This document shows, one piece after another, positions 21,994 through 28,239 of a stretch of 40,751 nucleotides of DNA. The notes under the pieces were generated by a model, which had not been told where the DNA came from, did not search any database, and saw nothing but the letters and a program-made list of their open reading frames with translations. Where the stretch lies: the sequence record NC_002166.1; one strand, written 5' to 3'. This DNA is from Escherichia phage HK022. Each line of letters opens with the position of its first letter. The first letter of the stretch is position 1. Position numbers and translations under genes: made by a program.

Positions 21994-22097
21994 CGCAAAG
22001 TCTCCGCAATTACACGCAAGAAAAAGCCGCATTGATGCGGCGATGGTAGGTCTGGATATCTTGAGAAATGAACAGGCCTCATCGAGTGTGAGGCGGG

Positions 22098-22442
22098 TTA
22101 GTCCTTGCGTAGCTCGCTGATTCTTCTGTAAGTCTCTGGTGCTTTGTTTCCGTGTATCTTCATTTCAGACTTCAACAGAGCAACGAGGGAATCCCATTCG
22201 TTGAGGATTCCTTTGAATGACGGAACGCGCTTTGCAACCTTGTCGAATGAATCTCTGATTTCTGGAATCTGCTCAACAAGTGCAACGCATCGCCGGAAGT
22301 CTGCTGCGTCATGGGGAGCGCCGAAGTGATGACCATAGATATTCTTTTTCAGTCCACATGCGATTGAGGCAAGAGTTGCGCTACTGATGCCGACATCGCC
22401 AGTCGATTGCCATTTCAAAATCTTCATAGCCAAATCTGACAT
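22098..22442 (-). CDS. hypothetical protein (114 aa)
   Basis: ATG 22442 with GGAGA 6 nt upstream; preceded on the minus strand by a terminator. Confidence 0.5.
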   Translation of the reverse strand: MSDLAMKILKWQSTGDVGISSATLASIACGLKKNIYGHHFGAPHDAADFRRCVALVEQIPEIRDSFDKVAKRVPSFKGILNEWDSLVALLKSEMKIHGNKAPETYRRISELRKD

Positions 22443-22454
22443 TTCTTGTCTCCA

Positions 22455-22479
22455 ATAAAAAACCGCCATCAGGCGGTTT
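22455..22479 (-). terminator. rho-independent terminator in leftward operon
   Basis: CCGCC-tgat-GGCGG hairpin followed by T6 on the minus strand. Confidence 0.6.
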
Positions 22480-22648
22480 GGTGTTCTTTCAGTTCTTCAA
22501 TTCGAATATTGGTTACGTCTGCATGTGCTATCTGCGCCCATATCATCCAGTGGTTATAGCAGTCGTTGATGTCCTCTGCTTCGATAACTCTGTTGAATGG
22601 TTCTCCATTCCATTCACCTGTGACTCGGAAGGCATTTATCATCTCCAT
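22469..22648 (-). CDS. hypothetical small protein (59 aa)
   Basis: ORF below the 60-aa track cut-off; stop codon lies inside the terminator hairpin; weak RBS. Confidence 0.3.
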   Translation of the reverse strand: MEMINAFRVTGEWNGEPFNRVIEAEDINDCYNHWMIWAQIAHADVTNIRIEELKEHQTA

Positions 22649-22707
22649 AAAACAAAACCCGCCGTAGCGAGTTCAGATAAAAGAAATCCCCGCGAATGCG
22701 AGGATTG

Positions 22708-22992
22708 TCATTCATTGTCGATATTCACCTTTATCGCGAACACCTTTACCGGTTTATCACCGAAGTGCGGATGTGTGATTGTCTTGATTTCATATCCGTC
22801 ATACGGGACGTCAATTCTACGACTGGAGTCGTCGCGCTTCGGATATCCCTTTGTGATAATCAGTCGGTCATAATCCCTGAACATAATTCGCTTATTCCAG
22901 TAGTCATTACACAGTCGATACTCTTCCGTTTTCTCCCTGCGAATCATGGCATCGAAGTATTCACCTTTGACGGCAAGTTGCAGGTTAGCCAC
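22708..22992 (-). CDS. hypothetical protein (94 aa)
   Basis: GTG start with AGGAGG 6 nt upstream; start overlaps stop of upstream gene. Confidence 0.5.
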   Translation of the reverse strand: MANLQLAVKGEYFDAMIRREKTEEYRLCNDYWNKRIMFRDYDRLIITKGYPKRDDSSRRIDVPYDGYEIKTITHPHFGDKPVKVFAIKVNIDNE

Positions 22993-23350
22993 GGTTAACC
23001 TCCTGCGGCGGTTCCGGTAGCGGCATCCAGTGTGACGGTTTCCACGACGCCCCAGGAATTAGCCACCCATCATTAGCGTCAGGATGCCCCGGGATGTAAG
23101 TCGCCCATTTCATTCGCCAGTCACCTTTCCTGTCAAACTCCCTGGCAACAAGAACGGCTGTTTTGCTATCCGGCATTCGCTCACTACAGCTTATCCAACC
23201 ATCCGGAGTTACCGGATAGTTGCCAGCCTTACGCATGGCAATCTCCACGATTTCAACCATATCTCCTGGCAGAATTTTACAAAGCTGGCCAAAGCGCCTC
23301 TGCTGCCTGGCATACTCGAGGATGTGCTCCAGTTTGGTTCGATTAATCAT
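22985..23350 (-). CDS. hypothetical protein, DUF551-like C-terminus
   Basis: 121 aa; C-terminal W.PLPEPP motif typical of DUF551 phage proteins; AAGGGGGA RBS. Confidence 0.55.
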   Translation of the reverse strand: MINRTKLEHILEYARQQRRFGQLCKILPGDMVEIVEIAMRKAGNYPVTPDGWISCSERMPDSKTAVLVAREFDRKGDWRMKWATYIPGHPDANDGWLIPGASWKPSHWMPLPEPPQEVNRG

Positions 23351-23712
23351 GATTTATCCCCCTTAAGCATGGCTGCACGGCAGGCATTCCAGCCTCTCAC
23401 CTCTGCAATAGCGGCAACAGCATCGACCGCGTACATGCTAAGAGGGTTAGGCATTGTTTTTTCTTCAGGTACTACTGGCACTGGAGGGGCGGCATAAACA
23501 GGAATAACGTCCGCTTGCTCTTTATTGCTTTCATCCGTTAAAGCCCAGAATAATTTCCCGGCCGGATGTTTGAAAATATAAGCAACTGGATCTGCTTCCA
23601 GCGATGCCAGTGCAATTTCATAAGCACGGCGCTCAATATTGTCTCGAACGTCCAAGCTGCCTATGCGCTCTTTGATTTCTTTAATCAGTTCTTTGTCGGT
23701 AAAAGTGGTCAT
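23347..23712 (-). CDS. hypothetical protein (121 aa)
   Basis: ATG 23712 with AGGAGA 5 nt upstream; stop overlaps downstream start (ATGA). Confidence 0.5.
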   Translation of the reverse strand: MTTFTDKELIKEIKERIGSLDVRDNIERRAYEIALASLEADPVAYIFKHPAGKLFWALTDESNKEQADVIPVYAAPPVPVVPEEKTMPNPLSMYAVDAVAAIAEVRGWNACRAAMLKGDKS

Positions 23713-23713
23713 A

Positions 23714-24421
23714 TCACTCTCCTTTGATGCGAATGCCAGCAAGCCAGTTTCTTATGCCGATATATTCAGCGTTCCTGAAACCGCTTTTTACATATATAAA
23801 TGGCAAGCGAAGATTGTGACCATTGACTGCCAGGTAGTCTTTACAACCCTGTTCGGTGAAACAGCAGGTAACGAATTCATCAATATCTTTCACAGCAACG
23901 CGCCGCCATTTTTCTGGTGGCTCTCGAAAGTTTTCGTGAAGTAGTTCGAGACGACGACTTTGGCGTTTATTGGCTTCATTGCCATCTTCATCAACCCAGA
24001 CAATCCGGTCATAGTCATAATCAGCATCAACAACGATTTCGCGCTTTTGATACACACAAAACATAGGGTCTGACGTTATTCGATTATCCTGTGTTCGAAT
24101 ATTTTCACCGATGATGCCAAACGAATCTGGTGCAGAGTTTGTCTGCAACTCTTCGATACGTTCAGCCATAGCAGCACACTCTTCAAAGTTGCTTAATGCT
24201 TTTCGCTCCCATTCGGCGCATTGTTTTTCCAGTTCTGCTATGCGCTTACTCCCATCCGAGATAACGCCCTCGTAATACTCACGCTGCTCGTTGAGTTTTG
24301 ATTCAAGTTCACCGAACTTACGGACAAGATATTCAGCGTTTGTTTCGTTAACCTTTAAATCTCGTGGGATGCATTTACCTTTCAGAAATCCATCCATCTC
24401 AATTAGTGACATTTGTTTCAT
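23714..24421 (-). CDS. hypothetical protein (235 aa) with N-terminal coiled coil
   Basis: ATG 24421 (track start at 24439 is GTG); translationally coupled to neighbours. Confidence 0.5.
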
Positions 24422-24582
24422 TTCTTCCCACTCCGCCACATCGCATTCAGATATTTGTTTTGATTCACTGATGGAAAAGAATTTCTCTTTAGCAATTCCT
24501 CTCTCGATGGCATTGGCTTTACGCGTTGGCGAATAATCATTTCTGCCGGAAGAATTCCTGGATTGTATGCAAGTCCTCTCAT
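24418..24582 (-). CDS. hypothetical small protein (54 aa)
   Basis: ATG 24582 with GAGGA 7 nt upstream; stop overlaps next start (ATGA); below track cut-off when started here. Confidence 0.35.
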
Positions 24583-24592
24583 GGTAAATTCC

Positions 24593-24886
24593 TCAGTCAT
24601 TACTGATAGCGCCATAGCGTGAGCGGTAATTACGCAGGCGCGGGTCAATTTCAGGGAAGTGGGTATATGTGGCTTTGCGGAATGGTCGGATTGATGTCTG
24701 GTAAATTCGCTCGCGTTCTTCTTTCTCTGCAAGCCATATACAATGGCGAAATTCCTTTTCCTCTTTCGTTTCCTGCGGTAGCGACATTATCCGGTTGTAG
24801 TTTTTCCTGAATTTATCCAGCACCTCCGATACGGAATTGCCGGAACAGCGGCGCGCGTCATCCGCACCATACAGAGGCGCAGGCAT
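24593..24886 (-). CDS. hypothetical protein (97 aa)
   Basis: ATG 24886 with AAGGA upstream; basic protein. Confidence 0.4.
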
Positions 24887-24909: not shown

Positions 24910-25293
24910 TTAGAAGGGAATTGAATCGTCGTATTCAGGATGATTTTGATGATTGCTACTTTGTTGCTGTTGGCTGTTTCCTGAAGTTGCAAATCCAATC
25001 TTTGCATTCAGTAATTCAAGAGTGATTGATTGACCATTTTGCCCCTGATAAACATCAACCCTGATGTTTTCTCCGGTAATTTCTACAATGCCACCTTCAA
25101 CAAGAACACTACGGTAGTAATCCGCTTGCGCTCCCGGCTTGGCAAATACAACGGCGCTGTAGTTTGTCCATTCTTTCTTTTTTGTCTGGCGATCGTAATA
25201 CTGAACGCCAGCACGGATGTTGAATCCGATATTTTCCCCGGCCTGAAACTCTCTTGCGGGCTTGTTTAGTCTTACAGTAATCGAATGTGCCAT
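24910..25293 (-). CDS. single-strand DNA-binding protein-like
   Basis: 127 aa from ATG 25293 (overlaps erf-like stop, TAATG); C-terminal acidic tail ...PEYDDSIPF resembles the SSB DDDIPF tail; Gln-rich linker. Confidence 0.6.
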   Translation of the reverse strand: MAHSITVRLNKPAREFQAGENIGFNIRAGVQYYDRQTKKKEWTNYSAVVFAKPGAQADYYRSVLVEGGIVEITGENIRVDVYQGQNGQSITLELLNAKIGFATSGNSQQQQSSNHQNHPEYDDSIPF

Positions 25294-25898
25294 TAAGCAG
25301 CCGCTCCTTCTAATTCGTCTCGTCTGATGTTGTAAACGTCCTGCGCTTTGTGCTGCTCCGGTGTTCCTTCGAGCATCTTCCACGCTTTGGCGAACGCCTG
25401 TTTAAGCTCTTCCACGGTGTTTTTTTGCATTGCTGCGTCAGTGAATGCTTTTAGAACCTGTTCAGGTGTAGGTGATGGGTTTGATTGCTTTGCTGCTGCG
25501 TTCTGCTGATGTTTATGTTCGTCGGTATCTGCATCTTTCGCATCATCAATGCCGAACAAACCATTGAGGCAATACTTGCGTGCATAAGAGCTTGTAGCTC
25601 CAGTAACTTGTGCAGAATCCATTCCTTTCTTGCTTTCTTCCTCTCGTGCAAGGGCGGTTGCTGTATGACTGTTTTCGCCATCAGTAATAGTTGCTGTTGC
25701 TTTCACGTAATACCGATCACCAATCAACACAACTTCATCGCTGATTGATAAAAACAGGCCATTCAGTAACGGCTTAACACCCTCAAGAATGTCTTCGCAG
25801 CTTCTGTATTTATATTTACCGAATGAGTTGTACTGATTCTTTGGCGCGTTCAGATTCTCCTGAATGGCTGCCAGTCTTGCGTAAAATTCTTTGCTCAT
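25293..25898 (-). CDS. erf: Erf-family single-strand annealing protein
   Basis: 201 aa from ATG 25898; N-terminus MSKEFYARLAAIQENLNAPKNQYNSFGKYKYRSCEDILEGVKPLL matches my recollection of P22 Erf. Confidence 0.6.
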   Translation of the reverse strand: MSKEFYARLAAIQENLNAPKNQYNSFGKYKYRSCEDILEGVKPLLNGLFLSISDEVVLIGDRYYVKATATITDGENSHTATALAREEESKKGMDSAQVTGATSSYARKYCLNGLFGIDDAKDADTDEHKHQQNAAAKQSNPSPTPEQVLKAFTDAAMQKNTVEELKQAFAKAWKMLEGTPEQHKAQDVYNIRRDELEGAAA

Positions 25899-25908
25899 AT
25901 GTTTGTTC

Positions 25909-26079
25909 TCAGAATGGACATGGCCCAAGGAAATAACGCTGATTTAATACTTCAGTCTTTGCCGCATTCAAAAATACGCGAACACCTTCACGATCTCCCT
26001 TCTGGCGATACATTAACGCCTGCTGCGTGTACATGCGTCTCTGTAACTTGCTCTCCTTCACTGTGGTTGCAAGTGACAT
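25909..26079 (-). CDS. hypothetical small protein (56 aa) upstream of erf
   Basis: ATG 26079 preceded by AAGGAG with 6-nt spacer; not in the ORF track (under 60 aa); overlaps the weaker track ORF 25988..26173. Confidence 0.4.
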   Translation of the reverse strand: MSLATTVKESKLQRRMYTQQALMYRQKGDREGVRVFLNAAKTEVLNQRYFLGPCPF

Positions 26080-26516: not shown

Positions 26517-26600
26517 AAAGAAGATTTCCAATAATCAGAACAAGTCGGCTCCTGTTTAGTTACGAGCGACATTGCTCCGTGTATTCACTCGTTGGAATGA

Positions 26601-27657
26601 GGCTTTGTTGAATAAATCAGATTTCGGGTAAGTCTCCCCCGTAGCGGGTTGTGTTTTCAGGCAATACGCACGCTTTCAGGCATACCTGCTTTCGTCATTT
26701 TGTTCAGCGCTCGTACCAGGGCCATAGCCTCTGCAACCTGACCATCGTAGTCACGCAGTGTCAGTGAACCCCCGAACAGCTGTTTTACCCGGTACATCGC
26801 CGTTTCCGCTATCGAGCGACGGTTGTAATCTGTTGTCCATTTCCACCGCGCATTACTCCCGGTCATTCGCTGATTAGCCACTGCACGGTTACGGTCTGCA
26901 TATTCACCGGGCCAGTAACCCGCACCTTTTCGGGGAGGGATAAGCGCGCTGATTTTCTTACGCCGCAGTTCATCGTGACATAGCCGGGTATCGTAAGCGC
27001 CATCGGCGGCGGCTGACCTGATTTTCCGGTGGGTTTGCCGGATTAACCCGGGGAAGGCCTCTGAGTCCGTAACGTTGTTCAGCGACAGGTCAGCGCAGAT
27101 GATTTCATGTGTTTTACTGTCAACGGCGAGATGCAGCTTACGCCAGATACGGCGGCGTTCCTGGCCATGCTTTTTGACTTTCCACTCGCCTTCACCGAAG
27201 ACCTTCAGCCCGGTGGAATCAATTACCAGGTGTGCGATTTCACCCCGGGTGGGCGTTTTGAAACTGACATTAACCGACTTTGCCCGCCTGCTGACACAGC
27301 TGTAATCCGGGCAGCGTAGCGGAACGTTCATCAGAGAAAAAATGGAATCAATAAAGCCCTGCGCAGCGCGCAGGGTCAGCCTGAATACGCGTTTAATGAC
27401 CAGCACAGTCGTGATGGCAAGGTCAGAATAGCGCTGAGGTCTGCCTCGTGAAGAAGGTGTTGCTGACTCATACCAGGCCTGAATAGCTTCATCATCCAGC
27501 CAGAAAGTTATGGAGCCACGGTTGATGAGGGCTTTATTGTAGGTGGGCCAGTTGGTGATTTTGAACTTTTGCTTTGCCACGGAACGGTCTGCGTTGTCGG
27601 GAAGATACGTGATCTGATCCTTCAACTCAGCAAAAGTTCGATTTATTCAACAAAGCC
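26601..27657 (-). mobile_element. IS903-like insertion sequence (IS5 family), 1057 bp
   Basis: Perfect 18-bp terminal inverted repeats GGCTTTGTTGAATAAATC (26601..26618 and 27640..27657); flanked by 9-bp direct repeat TTGGAATGA (26592..26600 and 27658..27666). Confidence 0.9.
26657..27580 (-). CDS. IS903-type transposase
   Basis: 307 aa from GTG at 27580 (track extends to a TTG at 27625); ends ...MTKAGMPESVRIA as in IS903 transposase. Confidence 0.85.
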   Translation of the reverse strand: MAKQKFKITNWPTYNKALINRGSITFWLDDEAIQAWYESATPSSRGRPQRYSDLAITTVLVIKRVFRLTLRAAQGFIDSIFSLMNVPLRCPDYSCVSRRAKSVNVSFKTPTRGEIAHLVIDSTGLKVFGEGEWKVKKHGQERRRIWRKLHLAVDSKTHEIICADLSLNNVTDSEAFPGLIRQTHRKIRSAAADGAYDTRLCHDELRRKKISALIPPRKGAGYWPGEYADRNRAVANQRMTGSNARWKWTTDYNRRSIAETAMYRVKQLFGGSLTLRDYDGQVAEAMALVRALNKMTKAGMPESVRIA

Positions 27658-27724
27658 TTGGAATGAATACACAGTGCAGTGTTTATTCTGTTGTTTGCGT
27701 GAAAATGAAACCCGCCTGAGCGGG

Positions 27725-28063
27725 TTATGACCACTTTTTGTTTGGGTTTCGCTGGTGAGCGTGATTAACAACTCTGTGCATTACATCCTCATATTTTTCA
27801 TCTTCAATTTTTTCGACATCGCGAGGAAATGGTGTTGCTAATGCTTTGTCAACTTTGTCCATTGGGTCTTCATTAATCTTATATTCAGGACCGTCATCTA
27901 TAGCATTAAATCCAGGTGTCACACCGTTTTTTAATGCATATGCTATCCTTTTTTCCCATCTCGCTATTCTCCTCCTGTCTCGAGATGTAAGACCTCTATC
28001 AGATACTTTTCTGTTTTGTCCGCTGTCAGGATTAACATAAATAGTCTTTTTCACCATAAGCAT
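27725..28063 (-). CDS. nun: Nun-like arginine-rich transcription termination factor (N-position protein)
   Basis: 112 aa from first ATG (track start 28069 is TTG); arginine-rich motif RKVSDRGLTSRDRRRIARWEKR; acidic centre; C-terminus ...NPNKKWS; no SD, as for N-like genes. Confidence 0.75.
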   Translation of the reverse strand: MLMVKKTIYVNPDSGQNRKVSDRGLTSRDRRRIARWEKRIAYALKNGVTPGFNAIDDGPEYKINEDPMDKVDKALATPFPRDVEKIEDEKYEDVMHRVVNHAHQRNPNKKWS

Positions 28064-28239
28064 ACCCAATAAGCACCGTACGGTAGTTTACTGTACAATT
28101 TTATTTTTTGGACTGCATGTATTTTGTTTCCTAATGGGTTTGAATCTTTGCAATAAATACTTCTATTTTTTCGAACGACTTCTATATCAAAAAGCTGCTT
28201 TGCTTTTTGTGACTAAAAGCAAAAAAGCCTTCTCGCTAA

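Follow-up and report, generated by a model that had tools for sequence, protein, structure and literature searches.

Eight small leftward genes between the recombination genes and xis of Escherichia phage HK022

Gene content of the block

Escherichia phage HK022 (NC_002166.1; 40,751 nucleotides, the whole of which we refer to as the window) carries a series of small leftward genes between its recombination genes and the excisionase gene xis. With starts refined by reading the strand sequence, eight consecutive minus-strand open reading frames (ORFs) occupy positions 22098-24886 (Table 1). An initial annotation, made from the sequence alone, had described seven or eight ORFs of 54 to 235 amino acids in this interval; there are eight, the coordinates are right and the size range is exact. 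The block and its ORFs (locus tags HK022p30 onward) are already present in public HK022 records, as is one terminator, and all of the genes belong to catalogued families.

All eight ORFs match PHROG families (E-values 8e-38 to 3e-54); accordingly, we consider them to be real genes rather than products of chance. Three (those encoding Abc2, DUF2737 and DUF551) also pass Pfam cut-offs. PHROG matches were obtained for two antisense ORFs as well: one of 100 amino acids at 22696-22998 on the plus strand (phrog_20945, E 1.4e-61) and one of 137 amino acids at 23084-23497, also plus (phrog_23547). The frame of the former is broken in phage HC6, whereas the four homologues checked all keep the sense ASCH-like frame open, an in-frame insertion included. 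We rejected both antisense ORFs as genes and treated them as by-products of the sense genes; the two PHROG families probably exist because gene callers chose the wrong strand in some phage records. Interrogation of Rfam with the 20-30 kb region gave chance-level matches only, and no non-coding RNA.

The first six genes, from abc2 to the ASCH-like gene, are tightly packed: successive junctions consist of a 10-nucleotide gap, an ATGA overlap, a 1-nucleotide gap, a second ATGA overlap and an 8-nucleotide overlap. Translational coupling, which had been proposed for the block as a whole, is borne out at these five junctions; it does not extend to the last two genes, which lie behind hairpin-bearing spacers of 59 and 26 nucleotides.

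The two hairpins in the longer spacer together fold at -24.7 kcal/mol (z-score -4.6). The first coincides exactly with the terminator tL4, the position of which was mapped by aligning the HK022 int/xis record X51962.1 (2,715 bp) to window positions 22976-20260 (99.93% identity). Further hairpins span the stop of the 59-amino-acid gene and precede xis, and the 59-amino-acid gene and ORF114 are thus each bracketed by terminator-like structures. In the 20-29 kb region as a whole the scan gave 18 terminator-like sites where 9.0 +/- 3.4 were expected.

Table 1. Genes and sequence features of the block (window coordinates; genes in order of transcription; aa, amino acids; nt, nucleotides; pI, isoelectric point).
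Feature	Position	Strand	Details
abc2	24886-24593	-	97 aa; AAGGA Shine-Dalgarno 7 nt upstream
DUF2737 gene	24582-24418	-	54 aa, pI 11; GAGGAA Shine-Dalgarno overlapping abc2 stop
Ea22-type gene	24421-23714	-	235 aa; ATG overlaps DUF2737 stop as ATGA
V3-type C-terminal domain of Ea22-type gene	23717..24139	-	141 aa
YfdT-like mosaic gene	23712-23347	-	121 aa; AAAGGAGAG Shine-Dalgarno; ATG 1 nt past Ea22-type stop
DUF551 gene, YfdS-like	23350-22985	-	121 aa; ATGA overlap with upstream stop
ASCH-like gene	22992-22708	-	94 aa; GTG start; AGGAGG Shine-Dalgarno; 8-nt overlap with upstream gene
59-aa acidic gene	22648-22469	-	phrog_676; 59-nt spacer before start
ORF114 (HK022p30)	22442-22098	-	114 aa; GGAG; 26-nt spacer before start
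tL4 terminator hairpin	22678..22706	-	annotated in X51962.1; stem and T-run in scan
Second terminator-like hairpin with T-run	22645..22674	-	directly before 59-aa gene; scan and fold
Palindromic hairpin AAACCGCC/GGCGGTTT	22460..22479	.	across 59-aa gene stop; T-runs on both strands; -13.2 kcal/mol, z -3.5
Two terminator-like hairpins, ORF114 to xis	22026..22094	-	scan; fold z -2.0 only, weaker evidence

Families and relatives of the individual genes

The first gene of the block, overlooked by the initial annotation, is abc2. Its product matches Pfam PF11043 over positions 1-97 of 97 (207.4 bits; cut-off 25) and phrog_656 ('abc2 anti-RecBCD'), and is identical at 87 of 97 residues, Pro68 among them, to P22 Abc2 in the RecBCD-Abc2-PpiB structure (PDB 8B1T chain A). 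Pro68 is the PpiB site. The place on RecC that Abc2 occupies is close to the Chi-recognition region, and the protein is believed to pass RecBCD-processed DNA to Erf (PMC9836394). By homology, the HK022 product is a predicted RecBCD modulator, which would act with Erf by binding RecC and altering the response to Chi. The label 'unknown function', given to the whole block, therefore fits the other seven genes, which are without an experimentally tested function, and does not fit abc2. Because abc2 works with Erf it belongs to the recombination module, and the boundary of that module falls at about 24582 rather than at 24886.

The same strand carries, upstream of abc2, an SSB-like gene, erf (25293-25928; PF04404, 151 bits), kil and cIII, followed by an IS903-like insertion. 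The arrangement resembles the P22-type module (erf, abc1, abc2) in that abc2 is about 90% identical and erf stands upstream of it; it differs in that the SSB-like gene is the only ORF between erf and abc2, so that there is no abc1 in the P22 position. The SSB-like gene (24910-25293, minus strand; phrog_44), which takes the place of abc1, encodes a product ending in DDSIPF, like the acidic C-terminal tip of bacterial SSB. As in P22-like phages, abc2 and the DUF2737 gene form a contiguous pair, whereas the genes downstream of this pair differ from the 'ea' genes of P22, HK620 and Sf6.

Most of the ORFs had been thought to lack recognisable motifs; more of them have recognisable relatives than was stated, namely the DUF2737 product, the V3 domain of the Ea22-type protein, YfdT, DUF551/YfdS and ASCH. 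The DUF2737 product (PF10930, 105.3 bits; cut-off 25) is 100% identical in phage HK620. Its gene is contiguous with abc2 in 141 of the 229 phage records that match either gene; however, the DUF2737 core is also present in hundreds of virulent Salmonella and E. coli siphophages, and the link to abc2 is therefore not obligatory. A literature search found no study of the family and a single mention, in a phage-therapy study. Virulent siphophages of the Jersey and Kaguna types (e.g., Salmonella phage F118P13, Jerseyvirus) carry homologues of both the ASCH-like gene and the DUF2737 core, which means that neither family is confined to temperate lambdoid phages.

The Ea22-type protein, for which there are more than 7,800 close clusters, is composed of a distinct 39-residue N-terminus, a short helical stalk and a C-terminal V3 domain. 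Residues 40-235 (196 amino acids) are 96% identical to residues 120-315 of Ea22 from Shiga toxin 2 (Stx2) phage 1717, which is classed as V3 (PMC10834534 Table 1); the whole C-terminal domain of a V3 Ea22 is present in the HK022 protein. The Pfam Ead_Ea22 profile (PF13935) falls short of its cut-off (25.8 against 27 bits, profile positions 113-139 only), and the Ead_Ea22 signature in the phage 1717 protein comprises residues 2-145, of which the HK022 protein aligns from residue 120 only. Set beside the V3 Ea22 proteins of the Shiga toxin (Stx) phages P27 and 1717, of which the latter was compared, the HK022 protein shares its last 196 residues, but has an unrelated 39 amino acids in place of the N-terminal ~119, which hold most of the Ead_Ea22 signature and the coiled coil. 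The alignments thus identify it as an N-terminally swapped V3-domain protein, not a canonical Ea22.

The V3 domain itself, common in Shiga-toxin phages, is covered by no Pfam family but is widespread (1,476 representative clusters at 50% identity). It stands alone or forms part of longer proteins, the longest of 640 amino acids, in which its position varies; it is occasionally fused to DUF551, Ead_Ea22, MazZ-type pyrophosphohydrolase, DUF3850 or Lar. An AlphaFold2 model built from a 71-sequence alignment is confident (predicted local distance difference test, pLDDT, 94.4; predicted template modelling score, pTM, 0.81) and shows a four-stranded alpha/beta unit; compared with a viral structure library it matched uncharacterised phage proteins only. 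AlphaFold and ESMFold had disagreed on the V3 region (PMC10834534). In the same alignment the invariant residues (Q17, R20, T22, R80, T91, T95, H108, N109, R122, N123, E125 and R130) are mostly polar, which suggests a putative ligand or active site.

All Ea22 proteins end in the tripeptide K-G-E, the significance of which has been called unknown (PMC7093339). At the end of the HK022 gene (23714-23725) the tripeptide is encoded by AAA GGA GAG, and the gene that follows, which begins at 23712, 1 nucleotide past the stop, uses these codons as its AAGGAG Shine-Dalgarno. For this reason a ribosome-binding site or a recombination junction, rather than protein function, may explain the conserved '+GE' end.

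The next two genes are best considered together. The first 42 residues of the YfdT-like product (phrog_5117, with segmental matches across phages) are 83% identical to YfdT of the cryptic E. coli K-12 prophage CPS-53 and 93% identical to the N-terminus of a 290-amino-acid DUF551 protein from phage 720R6; the first 45 are common to the N-terminus of long DUF551 ('EaA') proteins. The DUF551 product matches Pfam PF04448 over residues 51-116 (79.5 bits; cut-off 22), shows weak similarity to YfdS (25% identity), and found no PDB relative by sequence search. The two genes match consecutive parts of phrog_60 (positions 113-183 and 203-284) and correspond to the two ends of the single 720R6 protein, which points to module shuffling. 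In K-12, yfdS or yfdT, together with yfdQ and yfdR, is required for multicopy replication-initiation inhibition, and yfdS mutants are sensitive to H2O2 (PMC4776307). Both gene pairs lie near an excisionase, share the first 42 residues of YfdT and include a DUF551 protein, YfdS in the case of CPS-53. They differ in that gene order is reversed, YfdT bears no relation to the HK022 protein beyond those 42 residues, identity to YfdS is only 25%, and HK022 is without the yfdQ and yfdR partners.

The ASCH-like gene belongs to phrog_625, and NCBI gives its homologues (669 clusters) the name 'ASCH domain-containing'. Pfam ASCH (PF04266) gave no match to the HK022 protein at E <=0.1, and weak matches to 14 of 36 homologues (best E 0.029). 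No member of the family departs from K21, E24 or R26, and at least 90% have G19; GxKxxExR is the ASCH octapeptide motif (PMC6803910). The HK022 copy reads R19-E-K21-T-E-E24-Y-R26, an AGG arginine codon at 22936-22938 replacing the glycine of the family. The protein is similar in size (about 95-110 amino acids) to 'GKER' ASCH proteins (EOLA1, TthASCH and the TRIP4 ASCH domain; YqfB is of the GKTR type), and the family motif G19-x-K21-x-x-E24-x-R26 agrees with that of EOLA1 in spacing and numbering, with conserved aromatics at 12-13; the differences are the sub-threshold Pfam match and the arginine in HK022, the comparison being one of sequence alone. Proteins of the GKER type have recently been reported to deacetylate N4-acetylcytidine in tRNA.

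Of the last two genes, that encoding 59 amino acids matches phrog_676 (8e-38) but nothing in Pfam, NCBIfam or the PDB; its homologue in E. coli prophages carries the annotation 'hypothetical'. An assignment to DUF5405 was rejected: that name belongs to a different, 93-amino-acid gene that HK022 does not carry. ORF114 is 100% identical in X51962.1. Its relatives, from 281 phage records, extend to Arthrobacter phages, where identity falls to 30%, and share the conserved family signature W...G.vG.SS / P.D..DF.RC / WD. Its model, from a 10-sequence alignment, has a pLDDT of 93. Identification of ORF114 as YfdT was also rejected, there being no similarity. In HK022 and phage 1717, and likewise in two E. 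coli prophages, in Salmonella SE1 and in a Mannheimia phage, ORF114 adjoins excisionase or integrase genes; in Vibrio and Klebsiella phages, however, its homologues are placed elsewhere, and a role in excision is for that reason unlikely.

In the Mannheimia phage (vB_MhS_1152AP2, 2944-3409) the homologue, at 34% identity, has annotated rho-independent terminators on both sides, followed by excisionase and integrase; HK022 and this phage share the layout despite distant hosts. Public proteins also exist in which an N-terminus from Kil, Erf, Ea22 or a MazZ-type pyrophosphohydrolase precedes the C-terminal part of ORF114. These chimeras look like deletion products in decaying prophages, the deletions ending inside ORF114.

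Mosaicism and the lambda exo-xis region

The initial annotation had likened the block to the ea region of lambda, and it does indeed occupy the place of the exo-xis ('ea') region in lambda and Stx phages (orf60a, orf63, orf61, orf73, ea22 and ea8.5). In both cases the genes lie in the distal part of the PL operon, from the recombination genes to xis; they are small, early, dispensable and mosaic; and they include an Ea22-type protein with the same K-G-E terminus. There are two differences. A Pfam search showed HK022 to be without the conserved cassette (the TraR/DksA-like orf73, ZapA-like and DUF1382 genes of phage 1717), and an Erf/SSB/Abc2 module stands in place of exo-bet-gam.

Pieces of the block are found widely. 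No phage record covers at least 80% of it, a result that follows from the absence of the complete HK022 record from the phage collection, and 597 records share pieces. Among complete E. coli genomes, pieces are present in 4,210 of 5,426 (~78%). In the RefSeq entry for phage 1717, notes name HK022p30, HK022p33 and HK022p34 as relatives of three block genes.

Interpretation of the block

The block is very probably the promoter-distal part of the HK022 early-left (PL) operon, a mosaic cargo of eight real genes. In HK022, polymerase from PL is made termination-resistant by put RNA. As expected from HK022 and lambda biology, polymerase started at PL would read leftward through erf and the SSB-like gene, cross the block together with tL4 and the other terminators inside it, and continue towards xis-int. 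From their arrangement, genes 1-6 would be translated as a coupled train. Abc2, by homology to the solved complex, would bind RecC and redirect RecBCD for the phage Erf recombinase. Experiments on homologues suggest that the remaining seven genes are dispensable and that their products modulate the host: the Ea22-type protein may bias the lysis-lysogeny decision, the YfdT/YfdS-type pair may touch replication initiation or the oxidative-stress response, and binding or deacetylation of RNA or nucleosides (N4-acetylcytidine) is the candidate activity of the ASCH-like protein; ORF114 and the two small proteins would work through host partners to which they bind.

Several points weigh against this account. 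Read-through mediated by put is drawn from established knowledge, and putL was not located. The functions proposed for the seven genes other than abc2 come from homologues, not from these HK022 proteins, and the homology is in places partial. Only residues 1-42 of the YfdT-like protein align with YfdT, which makes it a bearer of a shared N-terminal module and not an orthologue. The ASCH assignment is sub-threshold by Pfam, and the HK022 copy has arginine at the motif glycine. The Ea22 protein of phage P27, a V3 member, is reported to be tetrameric, and the pro-lysogenic role of ea22 was established by deletion in lambda and Phi24B rather than in a V3 phage; with the first ~119 residues of V3 proteins, and so most of the Ead_Ea22 region, missing, neither oligomerisation nor the pro-lysogenic role may carry over to HK022. 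The virulent-phage homologues of the ASCH-like and DUF2737 genes argue against a purely lysogeny-related role.

Alternatively, these genes may form an anti-defence island, in which, besides Abc2, at least one further gene inhibits host immunity (restriction-modification, abortive infection or a RecBCD-linked sensor). Anti-restriction and anti-defence content had been put forward in the initial annotation. Abc2 counters RecBCD, and other proteins combine the V3 domain with Lar, a restriction-alleviation domain, or with a MazZ-type dATP/dGTP pyrophosphohydrolase; Lar-like genes lie in equivalent regions of relatives, and a systematic screen showed that accessory regions adjacent to abc2 hold counter-defence genes and abortive-infection triggers. 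The presence of DUF2737 and ASCH-like genes in virulent phages fits as well. However, searches of Pfam, PHROG, NCBIfam and PADLOC matched no known defence or anti-defence family except Abc2: PADLOC gave noise only (E at least 0.015), NCBIfam gave nothing meaningful, and no block gene besides abc2 falls in the PHROG 'host takeover' category. Sequence searches of the PDB with seven ORFs and two family profiles likewise matched Abc2 alone, and the experimental data on relatives concern lysogeny, replication and stress only. Beyond Abc2 the proposal thus has no direct support and is conjecture, possible but in our estimation rather doubtful. Equally, the block is not made up entirely of well-characterised housekeeping functions.

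Two further explanations concern subsets of the genes. If ORF114 and the 59-amino-acid gene were morons (autonomous cargo expressed from the prophage to the benefit of the lysogen, not early lytic genes), then their bracketing by terminator-like hairpins would be expected, as would the terminator-flanked position of the Mannheimia homologue beside xis-int and the occurrence of the Vibrio phage K74 homologue as a lone opposite-strand gene within the tail module. Yet no sigma-70-like promoter was found on the minus strand upstream of either gene, both are oriented as the PL operon, and tL4 is a named terminator of that operon; we regard this explanation as unlikely. More unlikely still is that some of the genes are functionless, decaying remnants. 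In the Ea22-type gene ~119 residues found at the N-terminus of its closest relatives are missing, the YfdT-like and DUF551 genes could be pieces of a split phrog_60 protein of the kind found whole in 720R6, and the ASCH-like copy has R19 where at least 90% of the family have glycine; against this, all frames are intact and have good ribosome-binding sites, the split YfdT-like/DUF551 arrangement is kept in E. coli HZ13, and other genomes encode proteins with the 235-amino-acid Ea22-type architecture at 97% identity. Because the V3 domain is commonly found on its own, the short stalk of the Ea22-type protein need not mean loss of function.

A block of PL-operon cargo is ordinary in kind, and under-studied. 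It is of wider concern because its pieces occur not only in most complete E. coli genomes (the ~78% noted above) but also in Shiga-toxin phages, where Ea22-type proteins influence whether the prophage stays silent or induces and makes toxin. The parts worth following are two orphan folds and one hypothesis: the V3 domain and ORF114 have confident models for which no structural relative was found, and are targets for biochemistry, while N4-acetylcytidine deacetylation of the ASCH type offers a testable enzymatic hypothesis for the ASCH-like gene.

Transcription reaching the block could be affected from further upstream. An IS903-like insertion (26600-27658), with 34-nucleotide imperfect terminal inverted repeats and a DDE transposase on the minus strand (26657-27625), lies between cIII and an ORF at 27725-28069 that we take to be nun. 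Its location within the early-left operon, ahead of the block in the direction of transcription, is the reason why it could have such an effect.

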